Positions 2,030 through 54,135 of a stretch of 64,000 bases of DNA are shown one piece after another. The DNA is taken from positions 24 through 64,023 of the forward strand of contig DASYRF010000518.1 of assembly GCA_036004705.1 (NCBI GenBank), given 5' to 3'. A program made the position numbers and the translations under genes. A model generated the notes under the pieces. The model saw only the letters and a program-made list of their open reading frames with translations, made no database searches and was not told the DNA's origin. The stretch is from Myxococcota bacterium. Its GTDB lineage: Bacteria; Myxococcota_A; Polyangia; DASYRF01. How positions within the stretch are numbered: the stretch's first letter is position 1; the number at the start of each line of letters is the position of its first letter.

Positions 2030-3871
2030 TCACAGCTCGTCGGGGCCGATGTCCACGGCCGGGCCGATCGGGCGCGCGTCGCCGTCGAAGTCCACGGGCG
2101 GGGCGCTCGTCGACGTGCCGGCGTTCACGCACGGCGAGCCGGCGGTCAGGTGCCAGTCGCCGCTGGGCATGGGCAGGTCCGCCACCAGAAGCGGGTCGGC
2201 GCTCAGGTTCGCGCTCACGCCGCCGGCGATGTCGGTCAATCCGTTCACGGCGGCGATGGTCGTCAGCGGCGTGCTGTTCTCGTCCCAGTACAGCACGTCG
2301 TTCGTGCTGAACCCCATGAGCGGCAGGAAGTAGAGGTCGTTGTTCTCGAACGCCACGGGGTCGGCCTGCAGGCCGGCGCCGTTGTCTTCGTACAGGCCGT
2401 AGCGGTTCAGGTTCCAGCCGCCGTTCAGGAGGTTGTTGCGGATGGAGCCGACGATGGCGTTGCCGAACGTGCTCGACAGCACGAGCCCGACGCTGTCGCA
2501 GCACAGGTTCGCCGCGGGCGGGAAGCCGCCGCCGTTGCAGTAGTTGCCGTTCAGCTCGACGGGGTTCGAGCCGCCCTCCCCTTGCAACAGCCCGCAGCCG
2601 GCCTGCTGCGGCCCTGAGCCGCCGTAGGCGACGTTGTTGGTGACGACGGCCATCGCCCCCACAGTAATGATGCCGCCGCACCAGTCGGTCGGCGCTTCGC
2701 ACGCCCCGCCGTCGACGTAGTTGTCGTCGATGGTGATCGTCCCCTGCGTCTGGATGCCGCGGCTCCAGCCGCCCGCCGACGTGCCGGCGAAGATGACGTT
2801 GTAGTGGACGACGGTACCGGCGCCGGCGTCCCAGGTGCGGATGCCGAAGGAGCGCTGCGCGTCGCCGCCGGTCAGCGTGTTGTTGACGATGTCCGCCACG
2901 GGGGTCGTGCCGTCGAGGTGCACGGCCGCTGACGCGCCGCCGGCGGGAGCCACGCCGCCGGTGACGGTGTTGCTGTCGATGAGCACGCCGACCGCGGCGC
3001 TCATCGGGCCGCTGACGTGGATGCCGACGGTGTCGCCGGCGACCGGGTCGCCGCCGTTGACGGTGTCGTTGCTGATGACGCCGGTGCCGCCTTCGACGGT
3101 GACGGCGGCGTTGATGTTGTCGCCGGTGCCGTCGGCGCCGTTGATGCGGAAGCCGTCGATGGCGGTGGCGCGCGTGATGCTGTCGCCCATGTGCACGCCG
3201 TTCGCGTCCACGTCGTCGATGGCGCTGTCGTACATGGACGGGTCGCGCACCCAGCCCACCGGCTCGTAGCCGCCCAAGAGCGAGATGCCTTCGACGAGGT
3301 CGATGTCTTCGCCGTAGTGGCCGAAGGCGACGAAGACGTCGACGCCGCCGCCGATGGTGATGGCGTGGGCGATGCCCTCGTTGATGGTCTGCACGGGCAG
3401 CGCCTGCGTGCCGGGGTTGTTGTCGTCGCCGGTGGACGAAGACACGTAGGTGCCGAGCCCCATGCACAGGCCCACCGGGTCGGCCATGCCGTCGCAGTCG
3501 TTGTCGGCGGCGTCGCCGCATTGCTCGGTGTTGCCGGAGAAGTTGTTCGGGTCGGCGTCGTCGCAGTCGCCGGCGCAGGTGGGCTGGCCGTCGCCGTCGG
3601 CGTCGGCTTCGTCGGCGGGGACGACGCCGTCACAGTCGTCGTCGAGACCGTTGCACGTCTCCGAGCCGGTCGGCACGCAGGCGGTGCCACCGTCGCCGGT
3701 GACGGCCACGCACACGCCCAGGGCCGGATCGCACATGAGCCCCGCGTCGCAGTCGCTGTCGGAACCGCAGGGCTCGCCGATGCCCGCACCGCCGCAGCGG
3801 CAGCCCGCCGCCAGCGACAGAAGCGCCGCCAGCGACACCAGCGCCACCGCACCGCTCAGAAGCCGCCACAT
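2030..3871 (-). CDS. Right-handed parallel beta-helix lipoprotein with an N-terminal Cys module and a MopE-like CxGxDDDCDG metal-binding-type motif
   Basis: ATG at 3871 with AGGAAGGGA upstream. Signal and lipobox: MWRLLSGAVALVSLAALLSLAAGC. Motifs: CGGAGIGEPCGSDSDCDAGLMCDP, CNGLDDDCDG and CGDAADNDCDG. Long G/N/T/V-rich repeats are typical of pectate-lyase-fold beta-helices. The C-terminus is GDWHLTAGSPCVNAG..DFDGDARP..DIGPDE. Confidence 0.8.
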   Translation of the reverse strand: MWRLLSGAVALVSLAALLSLAAGCRCGGAGIGEPCGSDSDCDAGLMCDPALGVCVAVTGDGGTACVPTGSETCNGLDDDCDGVVPADEADADGDGQPTCAGDCDDADPNNFSGNTEQCGDAADNDCDGMADPVGLCMGLGTYVSSSTGDDNNPGTQALPVQTINEGIAHAITIGGGVDVFVAFGHYGEDIDLVEGISLLGGYEPVGWVRDPSMYDSAIDDVDANGVHMGDSITRATAIDGFRINGADGTGDNINAAVTVEGGTGVISNDTVNGGDPVAGDTVGIHVSGPMSAAVGVLIDSNTVTGGVAPAGGASAAVHLDGTTPVADIVNNTLTGGDAQRSFGIRTWDAGAGTVVHYNVIFAGTSAGGWSRGIQTQGTITIDDNYVDGGACEAPTDWCGGIITVGAMAVVTNNVAYGGSGPQQAGCGLLQGEGGSNPVELNGNYCNGGGFPPAANLCCDSVGLVLSSTFGNAIVGSIRNNLLNGGWNLNRYGLYEDNGAGLQADPVAFENNDLYFLPLMGFSTNDVLYWDENSTPLTTIAAVNGLTDIAGGVSANLSADPLLVADLPMPSGDWHLTAGSPCVNAGTSTSAPPVDFDGDARPIGPAVDIGPDEL

Positions 3872-27858: not shown

Positions 27859-30800
27859 TCAGTGAATCGCGGTGGGCGTGGGCGCGCCCGGCGGCGCGTC
27901 CGGAACGGGAGCAGGGGCCGGGGAGGCGGTGGCGGCGGTAGCGGCCGCGTCCGCAGGCGTGCCGAACACGAACAGGTAGTCGCGCAGCAGCTCGATCTGC
28001 TCCTTGTACTTCCCCTTCAACACCGGCGCGTCGTCGGCCGAGGAATCGACCACGTAGAAGAGCGTCGGCATGCGCGTCGACGCCGGCGCCGCGAACGACA
28101 GCGGGTCGGTGAGCCACGTCGCCAGGAACTCGGCGCGCAGACGCTCCTTGGCCAGCGTCAGATCGGGCGCCAGTGCGCTCGGGTCGACGTCGCCCGCCGA
28201 GGCAGCCCCCGCCGCCGGATGGCACTGCTTGCACTGCTTGAAGGCGAACAGCGTCTTCGCATCGGCGAGCCGCTCTCCGCCGAGCGGGTCGTGCACCTGC
28301 GCCTCGAAGGGGAACGACACCTTCGACATCCCCGCGAAGTACCCTGCCAGCGCGGTCGAGTCCTTGTCGCTGAAGCCGAACGTCGGCATGCGCACGTCCA
28401 GCCACGGCCGCAGCGGGATCGGCTCCTTCAGGAACTTGAACACCCAGGGTCCCTGCACCTTCTCGCCCTCGCGCCACAACGACGGCGGACCCTTGGTCGC
28501 GTCGGGGCCCACGAACTTCGCCATCAGCGCCCCGGACCACTGGTCGATGTTGTGGCAGCCGAAGCAGTTGCGGTCGATCATGATGCGCCGCCCGTCGTCG
28601 ACGGCCTTCTCCGCGGGCGTGCGCACGCGCGCCAGCCCGCCGGTGTTCTCCTTGCCGCGGTTTCCCTTCAGGAACACCATCACCGCTTCGAGCTCGTCGG
28701 AGTGCAGCTCGAACTCCGGCATGCGCGTCTCGATGCGCTCGGTGCCGAAGGCGCGCGGGTGCTCCAGCTTCAGCTTCAGCCACACATACCAATTGTGCAG
28801 GTGGTGGTCCTCGACGGCGTTGCCGAAGTCGAGCAGGTTGTGATCCTTGAGGCCGAACTCGCTCAGGTCGGCGCCGATCTTGCCCTCCGACTCCAGCGTG
28901 GGGATGTCGTGGCAGCCCGGGCAGCCGTACTTCTTCACCAGCGCCTGGCCGCGCGCGATGAGGTCCTTGTCCTCTAGGCCCGCCGGTGGCGCGTCGTAGG
29001 CCTTGTCGCCTGTCTTCGTCATCAAGAAGGCGACGATGTCGGCCGCCTCCTGGTCTGGCAGCCGCAGCGACGGCATCCGCGTCGACGGCCACAGCGACTT
29101 CGGGTCCTTGATCCAGGCATAGGCCCATTCGGGCGACAGCTTGGCTCCGACGTTGCTCAGGTCGGGGGCGTGGCTGTAGTGGCTGAAGCGGTTCTTCGTC
29201 GGATCGACCTTCGAGGCCGCGTCGATGGTGTGGCACCCCTCGCAGCCGCGCGCGTGGAAGAGCTTCTCACCGCGCGTCGCGTCGCCGTCGACTGGCAGCG
29301 CCGCCGGGATCGGCCCGCGATCCGCCATCGTCACGCTCATCAGGAAGGCGGTCATCGCCTTGGCCTCGTCGTCGCGTCTCGCCGTGTACGTGGCCAGCGC
29401 CGCCGCCGGATTGGCCGCGTCGTAGATGAGCGGGATCTTGTCGTGGTCGCGCACCTCGGGGAAGAAGTTCGGCATCTTGGTGCGCGGGCGGAACGCCTTG
29501 GGGTACTTGATCCACTCGACCAGCCAGCCCGCCTTCGTCTTCATCCCCAGGCGGTTCAGGTTGGGGCCGATCTTGGCGCGGTCAGCGAACCGCGGGATCG
29601 GGTGGCAGCCGAAGCAGCCCACCTCGGCGACGATCTCCGCCCCGCGCGTCAGCGTTGGCGCCCAGTCGACCAGCCGGAAGCCCTCCAGGTCCTTCCTCTC
29701 GCAGCTCTTCTTGTAGGGCTTGTCGGGGGTGGGCGGCGGCGGCTCGGGCTCGCCGGGCTTGGCTACTGGCTTCACCTCCGTGCAGGCGTAGTTCGACGGG
29801 CAGTCGGTGTCGGCCGCGCACGTCATCTCGTACCAGATCCCCACCTCGGAGTTGTGGCACTTCAGGCAGCTGGCCTCGACGAACTTCTTGCTCGCGCGCA
29901 GCTCGGGCAGCACCGCCAGCATCCCGGCGTGGCCGCCCGCTTCGCCGTGCCCCGCGGCAGCGCCCGCTTCGGCGGCGGCCGTCGCCGGCGCGGCGCTCCC
30001 CGGCACGGCCGTCCCCGCCGCCGCGGCCGCGGCACCCGGCACGTCGGGCAGCTTCTCGAGGTTGCGCGCCGGGTAGAGGTCGAGCAGCGGCGTCTCCCAG
30101 TAGTGGTCGTCGTAGGCGTGGTCGTACTTGGCGCCGAGCGCCCCGACCCCCTTGGTCTGCGGCCCTTCGCCGTCGTGGCAGACCGTGCAGCCGAACGTCT
30201 CCGGCGGATGCTTCGCGAGGAGCACGTCGCGGCGCGGGTGCGTGCGGTACGGGTTGACGTACTTCTCGGTGTTCTCGAAGCCCGCCTTGTCGATGCCTAC
30301 GTGACACGAGACACAACGATCCACGCGCCCCAGGTGCGTGAGATTGAACTGGATGATCTCACTCGACGAGCTCTTCGCCTTCTCGAGCTTGCGCTCGGCG
30401 TCGGCGATCGGCTTCTCGTACTCCTCCAGCTCCTTCTTGATGTCCTCGAGGCGTCCGTCGAACGTCGCCACCTCGGCGAGCGCGGCCTTCTTCGCCGCCT
30501 CCAGCGCGTCGACCTTGGCCTTGATGGCGATGACCTCGGCGGTCTTCTTGCGCAGCAGCAGCTCCTCGCGGATGGCGCAGTATCCGTTCAGCGCCGGGGG
30601 CACCAGCTCCGGGGGCAGACAAAGGCCGGGCGCGTCGCAGTCCGCGTCGGCGGCACAGCTCGCCCCCAGTCCGCGCGGCGCCGGCGTGGCCGCCGGCGTG
30701 TGGCCCGGCGCGGTGATGGCGATGGTGTACTTGTAGAAGAGCTCGTCGCTCTCGCCCTTGCGGAACGCGAGGTTCTGCTCCCCGCCCTTCAGATCGTCGG

Positions 30801-31107
30801 CCACCTTGCGCACCTTGTCCTTGGCGGCGGCGTAGGCGGCGGAGCGGGCAGGGTCCTTCAACCCCGCCTCCAGGTCGGCCATCTCCTTGTGAAGCGCCTC
30901 GATCTTGGCGGCGTCGACCTTGGCCTTGGCGGCGGCGAGCTCTTCCTCCGCCGCCGCGGCGGAGAGGCGCGCGAACTCGTCCTGATAGTTCTTCCACGGA
31001 CGGCGGGTGATGACCTCGTCGTAGGCGACCCAGGCGATCGTCCCGGCGACGATGACGCTCAGGATGAAGAACGACCAGCGGTGGGATTCCTGCTCGACAA
31101 TGGACAC
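27859..31107 (-). CDS. Membrane-anchored octahaem c-type cytochrome (1082 aa) with an N-terminal TM helix and coiled-coil region
   Basis: GTG at 31107. TM segment: WSFFILSVIVAGTIAWVAY. Ala/Glu/Lys-rich heptad-like stretches follow. Eight CXXCH motifs: CVSCH, CTVCH, CLKCH, CFGCH, CEGCH, CPGCH, CFGCH, CKQCH. Several sit in class-I-like units ending in ..MP.F/L. Confidence 0.85.
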   Translation of the reverse strand: MSIVEQESHRWSFFILSVIVAGTIAWVAYDEVITRRPWKNYQDEFARLSAAAAEEELAAAKAKVDAAKIEALHKEMADLEAGLKDPARSAAYAAAKDKVRKVADDLKGGEQNLAFRKGESDELFYKYTIAITAPGHTPAATPAPRGLGASCAADADCDAPGLCLPPELVPPALNGYCAIREELLLRKKTAEVIAIKAKVDALEAAKKAALAEVATFDGRLEDIKKELEEYEKPIADAERKLEKAKSSSSEIIQFNLTHLGRVDRCVSCHVGIDKAGFENTEKYVNPYRTHPRRDVLLAKHPPETFGCTVCHDGEGPQTKGVGALGAKYDHAYDDHYWETPLLDLYPARNLEKLPDVPGAAAAAAGTAVPGSAAPATAAAEAGAAAGHGEAGGHAGMLAVLPELRASKKFVEASCLKCHNSEVGIWYEMTCAADTDCPSNYACTEVKPVAKPGEPEPPPPTPDKPYKKSCERKDLEGFRLVDWAPTLTRGAEIVAEVGCFGCHPIPRFADRAKIGPNLNRLGMKTKAGWLVEWIKYPKAFRPRTKMPNFFPEVRDHDKIPLIYDAANPAAALATYTARRDDEAKAMTAFLMSVTMADRGPIPAALPVDGDATRGEKLFHARGCEGCHTIDAASKVDPTKNRFSHYSHAPDLSNVGAKLSPEWAYAWIKDPKSLWPSTRMPSLRLPDQEAADIVAFLMTKTGDKAYDAPPAGLEDKDLIARGQALVKKYGCPGCHDIPTLESEGKIGADLSEFGLKDHNLLDFGNAVEDHHLHNWYVWLKLKLEHPRAFGTERIETRMPEFELHSDELEAVMVFLKGNRGKENTGGLARVRTPAEKAVDDGRRIMIDRNCFGCHNIDQWSGALMAKFVGPDATKGPPSLWREGEKVQGPWVFKFLKEPIPLRPWLDVRMPTFGFSDKDSTALAGYFAGMSKVSFPFEAQVHDPLGGERLADAKTLFAFKQCKQCHPAAGAASAGDVDPSALAPDLTLAKERLRAEFLATWLTDPLSFAAPASTRMPTLFYVVDSSADDAPVLKGKYKEQIELLRDYLFVFGTPADAAATAATASPAPAPVPDAPPGAPTPTAIH

Positions 31108-31242
31108 GGTGCTCTCTCCTGCAGCCCCGTCGGCGGGGCGACGGCCCTATGTCCCGGAAACCGCCCGGAATTTCACGCGCGCTGTGCTATCACGAGCGCC
31201 GCACGGGTGTCAACGCCGACGGCCGCCGCGCGGCGCAGGCGG

Positions 31243-32457
31243 TCAGGCGCCGCTGGCCAGGGCGCGGGCCAGGCGCGCGAGGCCCTCACGCAGGTCGTCC
31301 GCCCCCACGGCCGTGTAGCAGACCCGGAACCAGGCGGTGTAGTCGCGGCCGAAGGCTTCGCCCGGGGCGAGCGAGACGCCCGCTTGCACGGCGCGCTCGA
31401 TGAAGGCCCACGACCCGCCGGCGGCGAGGCGGGGCGGCACCCGGGCGAAGACGTAGGCGCCTCCCTCGGGGGCGTGGAACTCGGCGCCGGCAGCGCGCAG
31501 GGCGTCCACGGTGAGGTCGCGCGCCTCGGCGTAGTCGCGTCGCATGCGCTCGACCCAGGCGTCGCCCGCGCGCAGGGCGCCGAGGCCGCACCATTGCGCC
31601 GCGTCGGGCGGGTTGTAGACGACGTGGTTGGCGATACGCCGCATCGCCGCGCGCGCCGGCTCGGGTGCGTACAGGTAGCCGAGGCGCGTTCCGGACATCG
31701 CATAGCTCTTGGAAAACGTGAACGACGTCAAGGTGCGGTCGGCCATGCCGGGAAGCGCGCCGATCGACACGTGCAGCGGGGCGGGGGCGACGGCGCCGGC
31801 GGCGGCGCGGCCGGAAGCCGCCCCGGGCGCGGCGGCGCGGGGCGGCGGGAAGACGTACTCCTCGTACGCCTCGTCGGCGAGGCACCAAAGATCGTGGGCC
31901 TGGCAGAACGCCGCCAGGCGCTCCAGCTGCGCGCGCGACAAGATCTTCCCGTCGGGATTGTTGGGCGTGATGAGGTAGAGCGCCACCGTACGCGGCGTGA
32001 CGTGCGGCTCCAGCAGGGCGGCCGGATCGGCGCCCGGATCGTCGTAGAGCGGCTGGGTGAGCGGCACCTCCACCGGAACGCCGCCGGCGGCGCGGACGAT
32101 GCCGCGAATGAGCGGCCAGTAGGGCGCCGCGACCAGCACCTCGTCGCCCGGGTCGAGCAGCGCGCGCACGCCGGCGAAGATGGCCTGGGTCGCGCCGCAC
32201 GTCACCTGCACGTCGTCGGCGCCGGCCATCAGCCCGTTGCGGCGGCGAAGCTTCTCGGCGAGCGCCGCGCGTAGCTCGGGCAGCCCGTGCGGATGGCCGT
32301 AGCGGTAGAGCCCGTGCTCCGCCTCGTGGGTGGGCCAATCGGGCGCCTCGAAGCGCGCCTCGGCCGGCGGCGAGCAGAACGCGTCGCCGACGTGAAGCTG
32401 GATGACCCCCGGCGGCGCGCGCCGCATCATCTCGCCGAGCGTGGCGAACACCGACAT
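31243..32457 (-). CDS. Class I/II pyridoxal-phosphate-dependent aminotransferase
   Basis: ATG at 32457 (MSVFATLGEMM). Conserved blocks: ITPNNPDGK, the PLP-lysine block TFSKSYAMSGTRLGY, and PGEAFG. Confidence 0.85.
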   Translation of the reverse strand: MSVFATLGEMMRRAPPGVIQLHVGDAFCSPPAEARFEAPDWPTHEAEHGLYRYGHPHGLPELRAALAEKLRRRNGLMAGADDVQVTCGATQAIFAGVRALLDPGDEVLVAAPYWPLIRGIVRAAGGVPVEVPLTQPLYDDPGADPAALLEPHVTPRTVALYLITPNNPDGKILSRAQLERLAAFCQAHDLWCLADEAYEEYVFPPPRAAAPGAASGRAAAGAVAPAPLHVSIGALPGMADRTLTSFTFSKSYAMSGTRLGYLYAPEPARAAMRRIANHVVYNPPDAAQWCGLGALRAGDAWVERMRRDYAEARDLTVDALRAAGAEFHAPEGGAYVFARVPPRLAAGGSWAFIERAVQAGVSLAPGEAFGRDYTAWFRVCYTAVGADDLREGLARLARALASGA

Positions 32458-32564
32458 CTGCAAATGCACGGCATGCGAGCCGACGTCGGGAAAGCGCGGC
32501 ACGGGCGCATGGTAGCGCAGGTCGCGAACGCGCGGGCGAGGGTCCGTACGGCGGGGAACGAGGG

Positions 32565-33809
<1,245 letters not shown>

Positions 33810-33814
33810 CGTCA

Positions 33815-35188
33815 TCAGAAGAACAGGTGCGCGAACACGAGCACCTCGTCCTCCCCGTTGGTGTGGAACGACTCCGCCTTGGTCACGCGATGACGCCACA
33901 TGAGCTTGATCTCGGAGTTGGCGGTGAAGAAGAGCTCGAAACCGGCCCCGAAGCGCGTCTCCGCGCCCGAGGCCAGCGACAGGTCGGGGTCCTTGAACTC
34001 CCACGTGCCGACGACGTCGAACCCTTGCAGTACGGCGAACGACAGCTCGTGATAGACCGCGAGCCCGCGCGCGAAGCCCGTCGTCGACGCGTCGCCCACG
34101 CGCAGGTCCGTGCCACACGCCTCGCCCATCATCGGCGGCACCGTCGCCACCCAGGGGACGTTTTGCGCCAGGTCCGCCTCGGCCAAGTAGGTGAAGCGCC
34201 CCAACGACGCGCCCAGGAACCCGCCCGCGAGGAGCTCCTGGACGCCGCAAGGGGTGGGGCCGGTGGCGCCCGCCAGCAGCGGCGTGGGGCCGCTGACGTG
34301 CGTGCGCACCGCGGCGCTCAGCCCCAGCACCAGGCTGAGGTCCTTGAAGGCATGCGCGAACGTCAGCGTGGCGTACCCGCCGTAGCTCTGGTAGGGCGAC
34401 GCCGACCGCGCCCCGGTGGCGAGCGCGGTGTTGCTGAAGGGGAGGCCGAGCGCGAGGTTCAGCTGGAACGGCCCGACGTAGACGCCCGCCTCGACCCCCG
34501 TCTCGCGCGTCAGCGGCCCGACACCCAGCTCCTCGGTGACGTACGCGCGGTGCTCCTCCAGCCGCAACCCGTAGCTCGGCGTGAAATGGCCGGCGCGCAC
34601 GTAGCCCTTGCCGGGATGCGTGTACAGCGCCCACGCTTCGTAGCCGGCGCCGCGCACCGACTTGTCCACGTAGAACGTCGTGAAGCGGCCCAGCTGCGCC
34701 ATCACGTAGACGTCGGCCTGCATCAGGAAGAACCCGTCGCCGGGGAAGTCCTGCGCGTTCAGCGGATCGCCGGTGATGGGGTCCTCGCCGACCTTGTCGA
34801 CGTGCAGGAACGCCAGGCGCAGGTCGCCGCCGATCGCCAGCCAGTCGGTCAGGGCGCCGCTCAGGCCGAAGCCACGCCACTTGCCCTCGGCCGCGGACGG
34901 CGCCCCGGCGGGGTCGTCGGCGTAGTCCCCCGCCATGGCCTTTTCTTGTGGGTCCAGGAAGCTGAACGCCAGGCGCGTCTTCTCGAAGACGTCGCGCCCG
35001 TAGTCATTGCGCCCGCCGCCGCCGTTGGGGTTCACGTGGCACAGCGTGCAGTGCGCGCCGTTGCGCACGGCGAACCGCGGTAGCGCGCGCGCGGCGACGG
35101 GGGCGGCCAGGAGCGCCACGACACCCAGGACGACCGCGGCGGCCCGCGCCGCGACCGTCGCCGCGACCCCCCGTTGGCGGGCAAGCAT
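33815..35188 (-). CDS. Outer-membrane beta-barrel-like protein with a single N-terminal CXXCH haem motif (Cyc2-like fused cytochrome-porin architecture)
   Basis: ATG at 35188. Signal peptide MLARQRGVAATVAARAAAVVLGVVALLAAPVAARA, then LPRFAVRNGAHCTLCHVNPNGGGGRNDYG. About 400 aa of alternating amphipathic strand-like segments follow. The terminus VLVFAHLFF is typical of OM barrels. Confidence 0.65.
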   Translation of the reverse strand: MLARQRGVAATVAARAAAVVLGVVALLAAPVAARALPRFAVRNGAHCTLCHVNPNGGGGRNDYGRDVFEKTRLAFSFLDPQEKAMAGDYADDPAGAPSAAEGKWRGFGLSGALTDWLAIGGDLRLAFLHVDKVGEDPITGDPLNAQDFPGDGFFLMQADVYVMAQLGRFTTFYVDKSVRGAGYEAWALYTHPGKGYVRAGHFTPSYGLRLEEHRAYVTEELGVGPLTRETGVEAGVYVGPFQLNLALGLPFSNTALATGARSASPYQSYGGYATLTFAHAFKDLSLVLGLSAAVRTHVSGPTPLLAGATGPTPCGVQELLAGGFLGASLGRFTYLAEADLAQNVPWVATVPPMMGEACGTDLRVGDASTTGFARGLAVYHELSFAVLQGFDVVGTWEFKDPDLSLASGAETRFGAGFELFFTANSEIKLMWRHRVTKAESFHTNGEDEVLVFAHLFF

Positions 35189-35302
35189 GGGTGCCTGATA
35201 TCATCGTCGCCCGGCGCAGGTCAACGACACGCGCGGGGCTGGCACGTTCGCGGTGCCGGCCGTCCAACAGCGAGGGTGTGGGGCACCGGCGCGCGGACGT
35301 GC

Positions 35303-35330
35303 TTGACACACCCCGGCGCGGCCCTAGATT
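35303..35330 (+). promoter_or_regulatory. Candidate promoter upstream of dnaJ (sigma-70-like; also partly resembles a sigma-32 heat-shock promoter)
   Basis: TTGACA (35303-35308), a 16-nt spacer, then TAGATT (35325-35330). Read another way, CTTGAC-N14-CCCTAGAT resembles CTTGAA-N13/14-CCCCATNT. It lies 54 nt upstream of the ATG at 35384. Pattern match only. Confidence 0.4.
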
Positions 35331-35383
35331 ACGCATAGTCTGCCCTCCGGGCGAGGCGCCCGCGGCCGGAGCGGCAGCACGTC

Positions 35384-36559
35384 ATGACCAAACGTGATTA
35401 CTACGAAGTCCTGGGAATCGACCGGGCCGCCGACGGCGGCGCCGTCAAGAAGGCTTATCGCCAAAGGGCGTACGAGTTCCATCCCGACCGTAACCCAGGC
35501 GACAAGTCCGCCGAGGAGAAGTTCAAGGAAGCCGCCGAGGCGTACGAGGTCCTGTCCAACCCAGACATGCGCGCCGCGTACGACCGCTTCGGCCACGAGG
35601 CCGTCCGCCGCGGCGCCGGCGGCGGACCGTCGCCGTTCTCCGGCTTCCAGAACGTCGAAGACGTCTTCTCCCATTTCAGCGACATCTTCAGCGACATGTT
35701 CGGGTTCGGCGGCTTCGGCGCCGGGCGCCGCCGGGGCGGGCGGCGCGCCGGCCCCGCGCGCGGCGCGGACCTGCGCTACGACGTGGAGCTGGAGTTCCTG
35801 GAGGCGGCCAGCGGGGTCAAGCGCGAGCTGAAGCTGGAGGAGCTGGTGGCGTGCGCCGCGTGCGGCGGCAGCCGCGCCGAGCCGGGCAGCGCGCCCCAGA
35901 CCTGCCCGCGCTGCGACGGGCGCGGCCAGATCGTCCACAGCCAGGGAATGTTCATGCTGTCGACGACCTGCCCGCAGTGCCGCGGCGAGGGGCAGGTCAT
36001 CGCCAAGCCGTGCCGCACGTGTGGCGGCGAGGGACACGTGCGCCAGCAGCGCAAGATCAGCGTCGACATCCCCGCGGGCGTGGACGACGGCGTGACGATG
36101 CGCCTGCGCGGCAAGGGCTCGGCCGGCGAGCGGGGCGGCCCGGCCGGCGACCTGCACGTGGTGATCCACGTGAAGGCGCACCCAGAGTTCGTGCGCAAGG
36201 ACTACGACGTGCACTCCGAGCTCGCCGTTTCGTTCGTGCAGGCCGCGCTCGGCCACAAGACGAGCGTCAGCACCGTGCACGGGGAGGCGGACGTGGAGGT
36301 GCCGCGCGGGTCGCAGCCCGGGTCGACCATCGTGCTGCGCGGGAAAGGTGTCCCCCACCTACCGCAGGACGGCGGCGGAGCCGGGAGCCACGTCGTACAC
36401 GTGCGCGTCGAGATCCCCGAGGAGCTGACGCCGGCGCAGGAGAAGCTGATGGAACAGCTCGCCGCCGAAATGAGCGTCGACGTCCACCCGGTGAAGAAGA
36501 AGGCCAAGCGCGGCGGGCTGCGCTCCTTCCTGGAGCGCCTGCGCGACGAGATTGGCTGA
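35384..36559 (+). CDS. dnaJ: Molecular chaperone DnaJ (type I)
   Basis: J domain DYYEVLGI...AYRQRAYEFHPDRNPGD. Gly/Phe-rich region. Four CxxCxGxG zinc-finger repeats: CAACGGSR, CPRCDGRG, CPQCRGEG, CRTCGGEG. Confidence 0.95.
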   Translation: MTKRDYYEVLGIDRAADGGAVKKAYRQRAYEFHPDRNPGDKSAEEKFKEAAEAYEVLSNPDMRAAYDRFGHEAVRRGAGGGPSPFSGFQNVEDVFSHFSDIFSDMFGFGGFGAGRRRGGRRAGPARGADLRYDVELEFLEAASGVKRELKLEELVACAACGGSRAEPGSAPQTCPRCDGRGQIVHSQGMFMLSTTCPQCRGEGQVIAKPCRTCGGEGHVRQQRKISVDIPAGVDDGVTMRLRGKGSAGERGGPAGDLHVVIHVKAHPEFVRKDYDVHSELAVSFVQAALGHKTSVSTVHGEADVEVPRGSQPGSTIVLRGKGVPHLPQDGGGAGSHVVHVRVEIPEELTPAQEKLMEQLAAEMSVDVHPVKKKAKRGGLRSFLERLRDEIG

Positions 36560-36693: not shown

Positions 36694-38745
36694 TCAGGGC
36701 GCAGGCGCGGGCGCGGGCGCGCTCGCCGGCGTACTGGCCGGTGCGCTCGCCGGTGTGCTCGCCGGCTCGCTCGCCGGTGCGCTCGCCGGCGCCGCGGGCG
36801 GCGGCGTGGTCAGCGCGTGCCGCGGCCCCATCGCCTCGCCGCGCGTCGCCAGCACGTACGCGACGACGTCGTCGATCTCCTTGTGCGTCAGCTTCTCGCC
36901 GAACTTCGGCATCTCGTTCAACGGCCCGAAGAACTTCTCACCGCCCGGATCGTGGACGAACTCCTCCAGCCATCCCGCCGTGGCGTAGCCCTTCAGCTCC
37001 GGCCCCGGCGTTCCGTAGTCGCGCCCCTCGCCGGCGTACAGATGGCAATTCTTGCACTCCTTGTCGGCGAACAGCTTCTTTCCCTTGGCTACCAGCGCGG
37101 CGTCGACCGCCTTCTCGCCGCCCTCCGCCAGCATGTATTCGGCCAGCGCCTCTGCCTCGCCGGGGCCGTCGTAGGGCGGCATCAAGCGCATCTTCGTCGG
37201 CCCGAACAGCCGCGGCTCTTCGGCGAGCCGCATGACCGCCACCAGCCATTCGCGCCGCGCCCAGCCCATCAGCTCGGGCGCACGGTCGCCGCCCTCGCCC
37301 GCCAGCTTGTGGCACTGCTGGCAATGCTCGACGAACACGCGGGCGCCGTTCGTCATGGGGTCGCTCTCCCAGAGCGCCGGGCCCCCGCCGGGCGGCACGC
37401 CGCCCGCCGCCAGCGCCACCGCGCGCGCGGCGATCGCGTCCGCCTCGGGCCGCGCCTTGGCCACGGCCGGGTCGAGCGCGTCCTCGTGAATGGCGAGCGC
37501 CGTGAACGCCACTACCGCGCCCAGCCCGGCGAAGACCAGCACCGTCCAGCGCCCGCGCCGCCCCGCGGCCGCCTCCGGTCCGCTGTCGGGCTCGGGCATC
37601 TTCCACAGACTCCAGCCCACCAGGGCGAACACCGCCGCGGTCGGCAACACCACCGCCCAGAGCAACCGCACCACGTCGCGCGGCCCCGGGCTGCCGAAGC
37701 CCGCCAGGTTCAGCGCGACCGCCAGCAGCGCCGGCGCGACGAAGGCGAGCGCCGGCTTGAGCCCGCCGTTGGCCGCGCGGCGCTCGGGGCCGCGATCCAG
37801 GAACGGCAACGCCAGCGCCAACAGCGAGGCCAGCCCTGGCAGCACGACAGTGCCGATCGGCTGCAGCGGCCCCTCGAAGTACTTCAGCAGCTGGAACAGC
37901 GCCATGTAGTACCACTCGGGACGCGCCAGATAGTTCGACGACGGGTCGGCCGGCGCGTCGAGGCGCGCGCCGCGCGCGGCGAACACGACCGCTGCGACCA
38001 CCACGAGGACCGCCGTCATGAAGAACGCGTCGCGCGCCGCCTGCTGCGGCCAGTAGGTGTCGACGCGCGCCAGCGTCGCCTTGCCCGCCCAGGGCGGCGG
38101 CGTCGCGCCCTTCCGCCGGTAGAGATACAGGTGCGCGACCGACAGCGCCACGACCAACCCGGGCAGGACGAACGCGTGCAACGCGAAGAAACGCGTCAGC
38201 GTGAGGTTTCCAAAGTCGCTCCCGCCCACCACAAGGCGATCGAGCGCCGCGCCGACCAGCGGCGTCGACGCGATGATGTTCGTCGCGACGCGCGTCGCCG
38301 CGAAGGCACGCTGGTCCCACGGCAGCAGGTAGCCGGTGAAGCCCAGCCCGAGGATGAGGAACGCGAGAAGCACGCCCACCATCCAGTTCAGCTCGCGCGG
38401 CGCCTTGTGCGCACCGTAGACGAACGTCTGCGCGCAATGCGCCACGACCAGCACGATCAGCGCGCTGGAGCCCCAGTGGTGCAGGCCGCGCAGCAGCCAC
38501 CCGCCGGTGACCTGGTACTGGATGAAGTAGACGCTCGCCCACGCGTCGGTGGCGGACGGGCTGTAATAGAACGCCAGCAGCACGCCGGTCACCGCCTGCA
38601 GGGCGAAGGTGGCGAGCAGCGCGGTGCCGAACACGCGCGCCCAGCGCGCTCCGCCCGGCAGCGGCGCGTCGGCGAAAGCGCGCCACAGCCGCGCCACGCC
38701 GGCGCGGTCGTCCAGCCACTCCCACAGCCGCCGCAGCCCGCGCAT
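36694..38745 (-). CDS. Cytochrome b (N- and C-terminal domains fused) with a C-terminal dihaem cytochrome c domain
   Basis: ATG at 38745 (MRGLRRLWEWLDDR). Conserved blocks: FYYSP, GLHHWGSSALIVLVVAH, FTGYLLPWDQ, FFALHAFVLP and PEWYYMALFQLLK. Extra TM helices are followed by CQQCH and CKNCH. Pro/Ala/Ser-rich tail. Confidence 0.9.
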   Translation of the reverse strand: MRGLRRLWEWLDDRAGVARLWRAFADAPLPGGARWARVFGTALLATFALQAVTGVLLAFYYSPSATDAWASVYFIQYQVTGGWLLRGLHHWGSSALIVLVVAHCAQTFVYGAHKAPRELNWMVGVLLAFLILGLGFTGYLLPWDQRAFAATRVATNIIASTPLVGAALDRLVVGGSDFGNLTLTRFFALHAFVLPGLVVALSVAHLYLYRRKGATPPPWAGKATLARVDTYWPQQAARDAFFMTAVLVVVAAVVFAARGARLDAPADPSSNYLARPEWYYMALFQLLKYFEGPLQPIGTVVLPGLASLLALALPFLDRGPERRAANGGLKPALAFVAPALLAVALNLAGFGSPGPRDVVRLLWAVVLPTAAVFALVGWSLWKMPEPDSGPEAAAGRRGRWTVLVFAGLGAVVAFTALAIHEDALDPAVAKARPEADAIAARAVALAAGGVPPGGGPALWESDPMTNGARVFVEHCQQCHKLAGEGGDRAPELMGWARREWLVAVMRLAEEPRLFGPTKMRLMPPYDGPGEAEALAEYMLAEGGEKAVDAALVAKGKKLFADKECKNCHLYAGEGRDYGTPGPELKGYATAGWLEEFVHDPGGEKFFGPLNEMPKFGEKLTHKEIDDVVAYVLATRGEAMGPRHALTTPPPAAPASAPASEPASTPASAPASTPASAPAPAPAP

Positions 38746-38753
38746 CGCGCGCG

Positions 38754-39308
38754 TCAGGCCTCGACCCGCGCGGCGAGGCCGGTGCGGTAGCGGCGGAATT
38801 CCACCCACAGCTCGCCGCCCTTCACCTCGGCGTGAAGCTCGTCCATCCCGCGCGGCGCCGGGCCGGAGAGGCGCGCGCCGTCGAGGGAGAAGTTGCTCGT
38901 GTGGCACGGACAGGCGAAGTGGCTCGTGACGGGGTCGAGGTCCACCGCGCAGCCGAGATGCGGGCAGGTGGCGGAGAACACCTTGACGGTGCTCTCGCCG
39001 GTACGCACCACCCAGGCGGCGCCGAGACGTACGCCGTCGAAACGGCTCCAGGCGTCGCGCAGCGCCGCCGTGATGTTCACGCGCACCGGCACGCCGACGT
39101 TGAACCGCCCGAGCTGGCCGAGCGAAAGGGCCCCGGCGGCGCCGCGGGACACGGGGTCCTTGCGGAGCGGGTGGATGAGAAAGCCGACGGCCGGAGCGCC
39201 CACCAGGAGCGTTACGGCCGCGCCGAGAAGCCCGACCGCCAGGCCGATGAACGAGCGACGCGGCGGCTCGGTGGAAGCCGGCGCGGAATCGGCGGCTGCG
39301 TGCGCCAC
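38754..39308 (-). CDS. Rieske [2Fe-2S] protein of a cytochrome bc-type complex
   Basis: GTG at 39308. Tat-like RRSFIG plus a TM anchor. Cluster ligands CPHLGC and CPCH. Ends 8 nt before the cytochrome b start. Confidence 0.9.
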   Translation of the reverse strand: MAHAAADSAPASTEPPRRSFIGLAVGLLGAAVTLLVGAPAVGFLIHPLRKDPVSRGAAGALSLGQLGRFNVGVPVRVNITAALRDAWSRFDGVRLGAAWVVRTGESTVKVFSATCPHLGCAVDLDPVTSHFACPCHTSNFSLDGARLSGPAPRGMDELHAEVKGGELWVEFRRYRTGLAARVEA

Positions 39309-49318: not shown

Positions 49319-51382
<2,064 letters not shown>

Positions 51383-51401
51383 CCGAGTCGAGGCCACCGC
51401 G

Positions 51402-52514
51402 TTGAGCTTGTCCATCAAACAAGACCACTCGCGCTTCCGGCAGATCGTGCGCGGGAAGATCAAGCAGAACCTGCGCCGCTACATCACCAAGGGCGAGCTG
51501 CTGGGCAAGGAGGGCAAGGACGTCGTCTCCATCCCGGTGCCGCAGATCGACATCCCGCGCTTCCGCTACGGGCAGAAGCAAACGGGCGGCGTGGGCCAGG
51601 GCGAGGGCGAGGTCGGGCAGCCGCTCTCCGGCGGAGAGGACGGCGAGGGGTCGGGCCAGGGCAAGGCCGGCGACACCGAGGGCGATCACATGCTCGAGGT
51701 CGAGCTTTCGATCGACGAGCTGGCCCAGATCCTCGGCGAGGAGCTGCAGCTCCCCAACATCGAGCCGCGCGGGCGCAAGAACGTCGAGGCCATCAAGAAC
51801 CGCTACAACACCGTGCGGCGCACCGGGCCCAACTCGCTGCGCCACTTCCGCCACACGTTCCGGCGCGCGCTCAAGCGGCAGCTCTCCAGCGGCACTTACG
51901 ACAAGCGGAATCCCATCATCGTGCCTGTGCGCGAGGACGTCCGCTTCCGCGGGCCGCGCACGATCGTCACGCCCGAAGCCAACGCCGTCATCGTCTACAT
52001 GATGGACGTGTCGGGCTCGATGGGCGACGAACAGAAGGAGATCGTACGCATCGAGACGTTCTGGATCGACACGTGGCTGCGCGCGCAATACAAGGGGCTG
52101 GAGGTCCGCTACATCATCCACGACGCGGTGGCACGCGAGGTCGATCGCGACACCTTCTTCCGCACGAAGGAGTCGGGCGGAACGATGATCTCCAGCGCCT
52201 ACAAGCTCTGCACGAAGATCCTCGAGGACGAGTACCCGGAGAACGACTGGAACGCGTACCCGTTCCATTTCAGCGACGGCGACAACTGGTCGGTGGACGA
52301 CACGCTGGTGTGCCTGGACCTGCTGCGCGGGCGGCTCATCCCGCGGTCGAACCTGTTCTGCTACGGGCAGGTCGAGTCGCCCTACGGAAGCGGCCAGTTC
52401 CTCAAGGACCTCGTCGAGGCGTTCGCCAGCGACGAGAAGGTGCTGACGAGCGAGATCAAGGACAAGGACGCCATCGTGGACTCGATCAAGACCTTCCTGG
52501 GAACGGGGAAGTAG
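51402..52514 (+). CDS. yeaH: YeaH/YhbH family protein (DUF444, vWA-like)
   Basis: TTG at 51402. Conserved blocks: [39 protein letters not shown] and FHFSDGDNW. Second gene of the conserved prkA triad. Confidence 0.85.
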
Positions 52515-52519
52515 GGGCA

Positions 52520-54085
52520 GTGGGCCGCCACACCGGACAGACGCTGCCGCCGTCGCTGTGGGACGTGAAGGAGCAGATCAAGGACGTGGCGCGCGGGGCG
52601 GGGCTGGACTTCTTCGAGACCATATTCGAGATCCTCGATTACGCGCAGATGAACGCCGTGGCGGCGCGCGGCGGCTACCCGACCCGCTATCCTCACTGGC
52701 GTTTCGGCATGGAGTACGAACAACTCTCCAAGAGCTACCGCTACGGGCTGTCGAAGATCTACGAGATGGTCGTCAACAACGACCCCTGCTACGCCTACTT
52801 GCTCGAGGGCAACGACGAGGTCGACCAGAAGATCGTGATGGCGCACGTGTACGCGCACTGCGACTTCTTCAAGAACAACTACTGGTTCAGCCACACGAAC
52901 CGCAAGATGATCGACGAGATGGCGAACCACGCCACCCGCATCCGCAAGTACATGGAGCGGTTCGGGCAGGACGACGTGGAGGCCTTTCTCGACATCGCGC
53001 TGTCGCTCGAGAACTTGATCGACTACCACGCGCCCTTCATCGCGCGGCGGCGCACCGATTCGACCGCGTCGTCCTCGCCGTCGTCGGGCCAGCCGTCCTT
53101 GCCGCCGAGCGTCACCGCCAGCGCGCTCGACGAGGCGCCCGAGGCAGAGGAGATTCCGCGCATCCGCGCGAAGGAATACCTGGAGCACTTCGTCAACCCC
53201 GAGGAGTTCATCGCCGAGCAGCGCGAGCGCCGCAAGCGCCAGGCCGCCAAGCAGCAACGCTTTCCCGAGGAGGCGCAGCGCGACGTGCTGCAGTTCCTCG
53301 TCGACTTCGCCCCGCTGAAGCGCTGGCAGCGCGACGTGCTGTCGATCGTGCGCGAGGAGGCGTACTACTTCGCGCCGCAGGGACAGACGAAGATCATGAA
53401 CGAGGGTTGGGCGACGTACTGGCACTCCACGATCATGACGACGGGCGGCGTGCTCAAGGCGTCGGAGATCATCGATTACGCCGATCGCCATGCCGGCGTG
53501 GTGGCGATGGCGCCGGGGCGCATGAACCCCTACACGCTGGGGCTCGGGCTGTTCCGCGACATCGAGGAGCGCTGGGACAGGGGCCGGTTCGGGCGCGAGT
53601 ACGAGCACTGCGACGACCTGGCGGCGCGGCGCGCGTGGGACAAGCAGCTGGGGCTCGGGCGCAAGAAGATCTACGAGGTGCGACGGCACTACAACGACGT
53701 GACCTTCATCGACGAGTTCTTCACCGAGGACTTCTGCCGCGAGCAGCGGTTCTTCGCGTTCGACTTCAACCAGAAGAGCGGGCGTTACGAGATATCCTCG
53801 CGCGAGTTCCGAGCCATCAAGGAGAAGCTGCTCTTCCAGCTGACGAACTTCGGACAGCCCTTCATCGCCGTGGTGGACGGCGACATGGAGCACCGCGGCG
53901 AGCTGTTGCTGCGGCACCGGCACGAGGGCGTAGATCTGAAGATGGACTACGCGCGCGACACGCTGGAGAACCTGTATCGGGTGTGGACGCGGCCGGTGCA
54001 CATCTTGACGAAGACGGACGGCGCCGGGCGCATGCTCAGCTTCAACGGCAAAGAGCACTCCGACCGCTCGGCGGCGTACGACTGA
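52520..54085 (+). CDS. spoVR: SpoVR/YcgB family protein
   Basis: GTG at 52520, 5 nt after the yeaH stop. Conserved blocks: [47 protein letters not shown] and [12 protein letters not shown]. Confidence 0.9.
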
Positions 54086-54135
54086 GGCCCCCCGGGGGCG
54101 GGTGAGCCGTCCGCGCCGGCAGCGGCTACTCTAAG

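Follow-up and report, generated by a model that had tools for sequence, protein, structure and literature searches.

A predicted fused cytochrome-porin of a Myxococcota bacterium points to a large, unannotated sister family of Cyc2

Is a gene that resembles cyc2 in outline, found on a contig of a Myxococcota bacterium, a true cyc2, or does it stand for something related but distinct? When genomes and metagenomes are screened for microbial Fe(II) oxidation, Cyc2 is the marker gene used most widely. The gene in question occupies 33815..35188 on the reverse strand of a 64,000-nucleotide stretch of contig DASYRF010000518.1 (GenBank assembly GCA_036004705.1), which is referred to here as the window, and an initial annotation had proposed that it encodes a Cyc2-like fused cytochrome-porin. 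This proposal stood in part: the predicted protein is a monohaem cytochrome fused to a barrel and is a true, if remote, homologue of Cyc2, but it is not Cyc2 proper. The reading we favour, with somewhat better than even confidence, is that its product is a fused cytochrome-porin of the outer membrane, belongs to a large and unnamed sister family of Cyc2 and acts as an electron conduit.

The open reading frame has a GC content at third codon positions (GC3) of 0.94, a coding signature for a contig at 72-76% GC. An identical protein is present at NCBI as HEV8325747.1, 'hypothetical protein VG389_29320 [Myxococcota bacterium]', derived from a metagenome-assembled genome (MAG), and this record agrees with the earlier impression of a Myxococcota-like genome. 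The translation opens with MLARQRGVAATVAARAAAVVLGVVALLAAPVAARA up to the cleavage position and LPRFAVRNGAHCTLCHVNPNGGGGRNDYGR after it. The signal peptide contains no Cys, and the porin is therefore not expected to be a lipoprotein. After AARA, the mature protein begins LPRFAVRNGAHCTLCH, with a conserved [AILV]-P-x-F-A motif that is likewise found in canonical Cyc2. The only CXXCH, CTLCH, is located at amino acids (aa) 47-51, 12 residues into the mature protein, just as first described, and the protein has four Cys in total. The His of any CXXCH is the proximal haem ligand, and the sequence accordingly predicts one haem-c attachment site on a module of ~35 aa, with C47 and C50 as attachment residues and H51 as proximal ligand. 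The C-terminus reads …VLVFAHLFF, and a terminal aromatic residue is typical for outer-membrane barrels. The features of the gene are as follows.

33815..35188, reverse strand: coding sequence of the fused cytochrome-porin (open reading frame call, ATG start, 457 aa)
35084..35188, reverse strand: signal peptide, aa 1-35, reading …LLAAPVAARA before the cleavage position and LPRFA after it (sequence reading; helix 2-27 in the AlphaFold2 (AF2) model)
34979..35083, reverse strand: mini-cytochrome module, aa 36-70, LPRFAVRNGAHCTLCHVNPNGGGGRNDYGRDVFEK (alignment conservation, signature frequencies, and hhalign to the Cyc2 N-terminal module)
35036..35050, reverse strand: CXXCH codons, aa 47-51 (sequence reading)
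33818..34840, reverse strand: predicted 16-strand beta-barrel, aa 117-457 (AF2, with strands within residues 117-456; Foldseek; hhalign)
34505..34582, reverse strand: strand 5-6 segment at the L3 position, aa 203-228, TPSYGLRLEEHRAYVTEELG… (AF2 strand order)
33818..33829, reverse strand: C-terminal HLFF, in which the His at position -4 is a family hallmark

Searches of Pfam, NCBIfam and PDB sequences with the porin and with its family profile gave nothing usable, and no Pfam porin model matched the protein even at E≤1. A word-indexed search identified 49 relatives, every one annotated 'hypothetical', in Kofleriaceae, Persicimonas caeni, Bacteroidota and 'Deltaproteobacteria' MAGs. When a family profile made from a 48-sequence alignment (A1) was scanned against 1.84 billion cluster representatives (50%-identity clusters), it matched 4,308 of them at E<1e-3, 2,635 at E<1e-10 and 1,091 at E<1e-30; a protein 99% identical to the window porin (P0001) scored 385 bits in this search, and ten of its top matches were, by name, hypothetical proteins of Deltaproteobacteria, Proteobacteria and Nitrospirota MAGs. 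Altogether the hosts comprise Myxococcota, Bradymonadia, Bacteroidota, Nitrospirota, and unclassified 'Deltaproteobacteria' and 'Proteobacteria' MAGs, and no relative of the porin was found by tblastn among the plasmids of PLSDB.

Within this family, P37, C47, C50, H51, G56, G58, G120, R124, G200, G207 and H454 are invariant in the 48-sequence alignment, and P54, G64, D122, F154, M156, Q157, G177, E184, R209, H213, R218, G389, P421 and R432 are nearly invariant. CXXCH is present in 195/197 family members, the remaining two being N-terminally truncated gene calls, so that the conservation anticipated for this motif was found. Since C47, C50 and H51 are invariant in 48 homologues and CXXCH recurs in 195 of 197, the haem motif is not a product of chance. 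The motif RFA..G..C..CH.NP.GGG, singled out in the initial annotation, proved to be the signature of the family, C-x-x-C-H-[V]-[N/S]-P-x-G-G-G-[M/L]-R-[N/T]-x-[Y/F]-G (variants allow [VI] after CH), with post-CH frequencies among 195 sequences of 87% for P, 100%, 92% and 99% for the three G, and 72% for R. The window porin fits this haem signature with CTLCHVNPNGGGGRNDYG, and it also carries the barrel motifs G-x-D-x-R in strand 1 (GGDLR, 120-124) and F-x-M-Q-A-D in strand 2 (FLMQAD, 154-159), the L3-position motif Y-G-L-R-x-x-x-H-x-x-x-x-R (YGLRLEEHRAYVT, 206-218), and the C-terminal H-x-aromatic/hydrophobic-x (HLFF, 454-457), whose His at -4 is shared by 189/195 members (97%).

The haem module also occurs in other arrangements. 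Two CXXCH are seen in 10/197 members (e.g. P0044, P0046 and P0114, of about 460 aa), and in P0044 and P0046 (A1 columns 78-105) a second haem module, e.g. CRTCHIEPSGW…, precedes the usual one; judging from these sequences, di-haem versions of the fused cytochrome-porin exist. At another locus (L098), an open reading frame with FARKTGHDCSYCHLNPAGGG joins a haem module of ~40 aa to a polytopic membrane protein instead of a barrel; the module scores 44.7 bits to family hidden Markov model (HMM) positions 1-57, and the C-terminal part of the protein resembles, by eye, a cytochrome b5-type domain. Because the module is joined here to an unrelated membrane protein, the mini-cytochrome seems to be portable.

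How, then, does the family relate to Cyc2? In the definition of Keffer et al. 2021 (PMC8406198), Cyc2 has a signal peptide, one CXXCH, at least 365 aa and a 16-strand porin whose structural matches are OprO/OprP, as for the window porin, but the definition also includes an upstream motif AXPXFAR[Q/K][T/Y], called unique to Cyc2, and a downstream PXL, 4 residues after CXXCH; sequences without PXFAR[Q/K][T/Y] were dropped from the Cyc2 set, and many true homologues score low on Cyc2 HMMs. The earlier statement that architecture and size define Cyc2 was thus too loose. To obtain reference Cyc2 loci, the back-translated Cyc2 motif was searched for in genomes representing GTDB species, one for each, with a pattern that used CGN for Arg, so that the reference set is biased to TTC/CGN codons and F-A-R is fixed by construction, P not being imposed. 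About 100 of the 120 loci found encode A-x-P-x-F-A-R-[QK]-[TY]-x3-C-x-x-C-H-x3-P-x-L-x-x-F-G-x-x-F-K-x-x-G-Y, the loci include Acidithiobacillus (L013), Sideroxydans (L038), Gallionella (L064), Anaeromyxobacter (L027) and Myxococcales (L015), and 71 complete canonical Cyc2 open reading frames formed the comparison set. The L013 protein is 89% identical to an A. ferrooxidans 'cytochrome C' whose gene is followed by that of a Cyc1-like di-haem cytochrome, which anchors the reference set to the Acidithiobacillus Cyc2 group. Canonical Cyc2 sequences have no NCBIfam match either, and Pfam and NCBIfam hold no Cyc2 model; the lack of such matches for the window porin therefore says nothing about Cyc2 membership.

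The window porin shares with Cyc2 the signal peptide, a single near-N-terminal CXXCH, the length (457 vs at least 365 aa) and the 16-strand OprO/OprP-like barrel, and both the AxPxFA start and its spacing to CXXCH are identical in the family and in canonical Cyc2 (3 residues past the [T/Y] position; a 39-nt pattern). Profile-profile alignment with hhalign matched the family to the 71 Cyc2 at 99.1-99.8% probability (E 1e-18 to 1e-26, 363-365 columns), the haem module to the Cyc2 N-terminal module at 98.2% (E 6e-14) and the barrel to the Cyc2 barrel at 96.1% (E 3.5e-9, 248 columns), and the controls gave 0.1% for mismatched halves and, for reversed sequences, 4.7% (haem module) and 0.1% (barrel). 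On the side of separation, the family HMM gave at least 321 bits on members and at most 33 bits on canonical Cyc2, and members other than the window porin reached up to 53.6 bits on the Cyc2 HMM, all judged by bit scores, the E-values being tied to databases of 48 and 71 sequences. BLASTP linked about 99% of the pairs within each group and about 6.5% across the two, with a best cross-group match of 47.8 bits and 25% identity over 321 aa. Outside the haem module, glycines are almost all that the 71 Cyc2 conserve, whereas the family barrel conserves D122, R124, M156, Q157, D159, E184, R209, H213, R218, R432 and H454; His at -4 is found in 0/71 canonical Cyc2. Because profile-profile homology spans the full length but the two Cyc2 motifs and the HMM scores separate the groups, these comparisons place the family as a remote full-length homologue of Cyc2 in a cluster of its own, i.e. 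a sister family and not Cyc2 proper.

The fold was predicted with AlphaFold2 from the 48-sequence family alignment, and the resulting model (mean predicted local distance difference test (pLDDT) 76, predicted template modelling score (pTM) 0.80) is a 16-strand transmembrane barrel, in keeping with the porin-sized barrel ending in FAHLFF that had been read from the sequence. The strand regions are mostly at pLDDT 82-96, and low-confidence regions occur only at the signal-peptide junction and in four long loops. Foldseek against the PDB matched solely 16-strand porins, with OprP (2o4v) and OprO (4rjw) among the best (TMq 0.55, E about 1e-11 to 1e-12). The aa 203-228 segment contains a short helix at 216-219 (pLDDT 82-91), and its G207, R209, H213 and R218 are conserved at 93-100%. 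Since the N-terminus is periplasmic, this segment would be the extracellular loop L3, and by analogy we infer that it folds into the lumen, as the constriction loop L3 of porins does. On this reading, H454 would lie at the periplasmic end of the last strand, near the expected exit of the haem module.

A partner for the porin is encoded immediately downstream on the same strand.

32565..33815, reverse strand: di-haem c-type cytochrome, 416 aa, with CAACH and CWDCH (PF13442 and PF00034, two domains)
33813..33817, reverse strand: TGATG stop/start overlap, in which the porin TGA and the cytochrome ATG share an A (1 nt)
33714..33797, reverse strand: Pro-Thr repeat PRPGPTPTPTPTPTLTPAPTPTPTPT, aa 7-34 of the di-haem cytochrome, which precedes a hydrophobic signal/anchor segment

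The TGATG overlap suggests that the porin and the di-haem cytochrome are translationally coupled, and the same 1-nt overlap was called in a metagenome contig that is 99% identical (L128). The start of the cytochrome has an alternative in the Met at aa 51, and the L128 version is 2 aa shorter. In 7/7 further family loci a c-type cytochrome gene is adjacent to the member or one gene away, and a di-haem orthologue is present in 5/7 (L121/L122, L123, L126, L127 and L128). By BLASTP against the window protein, these di-haem cytochromes show 43% identity (2e-79) in L126, 43% (2e-72) in L127, 38% (3e-60) in L121 and 36% (6e-52) in L123; the di-haem partner is better conserved than the barrel. The gene content at these loci is as follows.

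L121/L122, Kofleriaceae: monohaem cytochrome c, 1172-aa 5-haem cytochrome, cupredoxin-like protein of 154 aa, PEGA protein, family member, CarboxypepD_reg and di-haem fusion
L123, Persicimonas caeni: cupredoxin, family member, di-haem cytochrome
L126, deltaproteobacterial MAG: 140-aa gene, family member, di-haem cytochrome
L127, MAG GCA_036679645.1: cupredoxin-like protein of 614 aa, di-haem cytochrome, monohaem cytochrome of 144 aa, family member, followed by two CarboxypepD_reg-type genes, a CydA-like protein and more cytochromes
L124 and L125, Bacteroidota-type and more distant members: adjoining monohaem cytochrome

The CydA-like protein of L127 (6910..8916 and flanks) has 668 aa (PF01654), an EB_dh-domain cytochrome is also present, and the cluster may be a complete outer-to-inner-membrane electron chain. 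Cupredoxin genes adjoin the member in Persicimonas and Kofleriaceae, a neighbourhood that recalls cyc2-cyc1-…-rus.

The di-haem partner is not confined to the sister family. In at least 11 canonical cyc2 loci (L001, L004, L008, L048, L074, L088, L092, L106, L108, L114 and L117), a di-haem gene of the same kind lies directly downstream of cyc2 on the same strand (35-47% identity, E to 1e-52), and a CarboxypepD_reg-like gene recurs in family loci and canonical cyc2 loci alike. The order cyc2, di-haem cytochrome, CarboxypepD_reg-like was seen in L001, L004, L008, L048, L108 and others, from Acidobacteriota-, Gemmatimonadota- and Chloroflexi-type MAGs, and no description of this three-gene module was found in the literature consulted; the window itself has neither a CarboxypepD_reg-like gene nor the small upstream gene known from other loci. 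The operon arrangement with a di-haem cytochrome is kept in different phyla and recurs at some canonical cyc2 loci, and these shared partner genes are the strongest argument that the family and Cyc2 do the same kind of job. The possibility that the di-haem partner is the orthologue of Acidithiobacillus Cyc1 was rejected, as the best E against the Cyc1-like c4 cytochrome was 0.06; the parallel to cyc2-cyc1 is therefore one of organisation, not of orthology.

Further respiratory genes on the same strand count in favour of an electron conduit.

38754..39308, reverse strand: Rieske protein (PF00355)
36694..38790, reverse strand: cytochrome b with a C-terminal cytochrome c domain (PF00033, PF13631, PF00032 and PF00034)
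27859..31107, reverse strand: membrane-anchored cytochrome, 1082 aa, with 8 CXXCH (PF00034, PF13442, a FixO-like segment and an N-terminal transmembrane helix)

The Rieske and cytochrome b genes, 1.5 kb upstream of the porin and separated from it by dnaJ on the opposite strand, make up a quinol:cytochrome c module of complex III type; a functional link of this module to the porin is suggested only by proximity. The 8-CXXCH cytochrome gene lies downstream of the porin, past an aminotransferase gene; as a conserved part of the system it was dropped, having no match to the 1172-aa Kofleriaceae cytochrome.

Taken together, the porin is probably an electron gate through the outer membrane, and by analogy Fe(II) oxidation is its most likely role. 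The haem module would sit at the periplasmic mouth of its own barrel, where the invariant His at -4 (H454) would be the residue nearest to it and a candidate sixth haem ligand or propionate partner, M156 being equally a candidate. A small dissolved redox species, most likely Fe2+, would enter the pore from outside, meet a constriction lined by the conserved D122, R124, Q157, D159, E184, R209, H213, R218 and R432, and donate an electron to the haem, which would then reduce the co-translated periplasmic di-haem cytochrome c. From there electrons could reach the inner-membrane chain, i.e. the Rieske/cytochrome b-c complex, the nearby 8-haem cytochrome, and a terminal oxidase encoded elsewhere. 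The inward direction and the Fe(II) substrate, both argued by analogy, are the least secure of these steps.

Several observations weigh against an electron-conducting sister of Cyc2. The upstream Cyc2 motif fails in the window porin, which reads ALPRFAVRN (family consensus A-L-P-R-F-A-x-R-T) and leaves the R-[QK]-[TY] part unmatched, and all 71 reference Cyc2 have P-x-F-A-R. PXL fails as well: the window sequence is CH-V-N-P-N-G-G-G-G-R, with Pro at +3, then GGG and no Leu, at positions where the reference Cyc2 have P in 97% and L in 100%. On the Cyc2 HMM built from 71 sequences the window porin scores only 18.3 bits, against 129-425 bits for canonical sequences, and the link to a Cyc2 profile that the initial annotation called for was found in the profile-profile alignments. 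All family members are annotated 'hypothetical', and their function is argued from sequence and analogy. None of the known hosts, i.e. Myxococcota, the predator Persicimonas, and MAGs of Bacteroidota and Nitrospirota, is known to oxidise iron, and the window contains no terminal oxidase and no cupredoxin. The failed motifs and low score speak equally to the question of whether the protein could be a canonical Cyc2 Fe(II) oxidase, inside one of the three published clusters and already labelled by tools such as FeGenie, which we regard as improbable. The same architecture, length class, OprO/OprP-like fold, AxPxFA start and CXXCH spacing are what such an assignment would predict, some family members reach 40-54 bits on the Cyc2 HMM, and true homologues often score low on such models (PMC8406198), but R[Q/K][T/Y] and PXL are absent from the family consensus as from the window porin, and motif-less sequences were removed from the published set (PMC8406198). 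Moreover, self and cross HMM scores are disjoint (at least 321 vs at most 33 for the family model, at least 129 vs at most 54 for that of Cyc2), BLASTP joins few cross pairs when compared with the near-complete linkage within groups, and the C-terminal His and conserved lumen residues are absent from 71/71 Cyc2.

A conduit working in the other direction or on another substrate, which would export electrons to Fe(III), humics or Mn(IV), oxidise Mn(II) or another donor, or detoxify Fe(II) or reactive species, appears to us rather unlikely. It would suit the hosts, heterotrophic and predatory bacteria for which growth on Fe(II) is not known, and Cyc2-type genes do occur in iron reducers, in non-iron-oxidisers and in bacteria not known for extracellular electron transfer, which weighs on both direction and substrate; the strongly conserved lumen residues, which differ from those of Cyc2, hint at a different specificity, and at L127 a member is found together with EB_dh-type cytochromes and a CydA-like protein. 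A narrow 16-strand pore holding one haem is, however, ill-suited to insoluble acceptors (PMC8406198), and the partner cytochrome held in common with canonical cyc2 loci argues for the same job. Very improbable indeed is an ordinary OprP-type diffusion or specific porin, in which the N-terminal CXXCH would be incidental or form a disulphide and have no redox role, even though substrate porins are the best fold matches and the lumen and L3-like loop, with their conserved Arg, Asp and His, are like those of ion-selective porins. The C, C and H are invariant in 195/195 full-length relatives, within a conserved module of 20 residues that shares homology with the haem module of Cyc2, and one Cyc2, Cyc2PV-1, was characterised biochemically after expression as an iron-oxidising cytochrome, with a potential of 208 ± 20 mV (PMC8406198); the same module is found on an unrelated membrane protein (L098), and c-type cytochrome genes are adjacent or one gene away at every locus examined. 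Beyond the sister-family conduit that we favour, it is conceivable, and we hold it only tentatively, that the family makes up a fourth clade of fused cytochrome-porins, very large in size, and is a distinct outer-membrane redox enzyme, with a jointly built haem pocket, a charge-lined selective pore and a different substrate or potential. In that case, conserved barrel residues (H213 of the L3 loop, M156 and the C-terminal His) may form the haem pocket together with the N-terminal module.

The remaining features of the window concern the expression of the porin gene and genes at some distance from it.

35195..35224, reverse strand: candidate promoter TTGACC, 18 nt, TG-a-TATCAG (extended -10), weak, from sequence reading, ending 6 nt 5' of the ATG

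A consensus promoter scanner made no call for the porin gene, the TTGACC/TATCAG site included. No Shine-Dalgarno sequence precedes the porin ATG, so that a leaderless mRNA is possible, and 31000..35500 yielded no intrinsic terminator. Elsewhere in the window, a trio of prkA, DUF444 and a 515-aa gene without Pfam match, at 49319..54105 on the forward strand, has a GC content of 0.63-0.64 vs mostly 0.70-0.77 elsewhere on the contig, and 2030..3871 on the reverse strand encodes a protein of 613 aa in which a putative copper/metal-binding motif of MopE type (PF11617) is present.

The fused cytochrome-porin of Cyc2 type is already known as a kind of protein. The apparent novelty lies in a large sister family that has a signature of its own, is annotated nowhere and would be excluded by the published Cyc2 motif filter. 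The occurrence in Myxococcota is less of a departure than had been implied, since canonical Cyc2 is found in Anaeromyxobacter (L027) and Myxococcales MAGs (L015), and deltaproteobacterial Cyc2 sequences stand in a published tree (PMC12442345); our literature searches found no paper linking Cyc2 with Bradymonadia, Kofleriaceae, Haliangia or Nannocystineae. On the evidence of this locus, Cyc2 has a large, uniformly unannotated sister family with the same architecture, partly the same partner genes and a different haem-pocket signature. If its members carry out Cyc2-like electron transfer, extracellular electron exchange is encoded in groups for which it had so far received no consideration, such as Kofleriaceae-type Myxococcota, Persicimonas caeni, and Bacteroidota and Nitrospirota MAGs, and marker-based surveys under-count it; if the family is instead a fourth clade and a distinct enzyme, surveys of iron oxidation or extracellular electron transfer that use Cyc2 as a marker miss a major component in abundant predators and heterotrophs. 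The conserved lumen residues and the C-terminal His are concrete targets for mutation, and may help to explain how Cyc2 holds a single haem in a 16-strand pore, as well as its sixth ligand. Since Persicimonas caeni is in culture and its genome is complete (CP042468, with the genes at 2,247,988-2,265,196), this hypothesis is open to direct testing.

Among known systems, the phosphate-selective porins OprP/OprO (2o4v, 4rjw) and the general 16-strand porins VhChiP, Omp32 and OmpF are like the family in their 16-strand barrel (Foldseek E about 1e-11 to 1e-12) and in having, at the L3 position, a structured loop in which charged residues are conserved, whereas they differ from it in having 9-13% sequence identity, no N-terminal haem module and no cytochrome gene neighbours. 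MtrAB, MtoAB and PioAB follow the same logic, with electrons crossing the outer membrane via a cytochrome-holding barrel, with periplasmic cytochromes encoded alongside, but they consist of two or more proteins, with a 26-strand barrel and a decahaem cytochrome (PMC8406198), whereas the family has one polypeptide, 16 strands and one haem, and no sequence similarity to them. Cyt572 of Leptospirillum, a monohaem cytochrome of the outer membrane for which a barrel is predicted, resembles other Cyc2 proteins chiefly in the N-terminal haem region (PMC5566968). As the most divergent Cyc2 homologue to have been biochemically tested, it is a precedent for very divergent barrels that keep their function; unlike the family, it falls, by its published description, inside the Cyc2 tree with the Cyc2 motif kept. 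Closest is Cyc2 itself (A. ferrooxidans Cyc2, Mariprofundus ferrooxydans Cyc2PV-1, and those of Gallionellaceae and Chlorobi), which has a length of about 400-480 aa in common with the family and, like it, [YF]-G-R a few residues past the haem. The two part at R[Q/K][T/Y], replaced by x-R-[T/N] (VRN in the window porin), and at PXL, replaced by N-P-x-G-G-G-x-R, and they meet again in their surroundings, where a periplasmic di-haem cytochrome gene comes next, of the same cytochrome family that stands behind a subset of canonical cyc2, and where, in some family loci, cupredoxin genes lie nearby.

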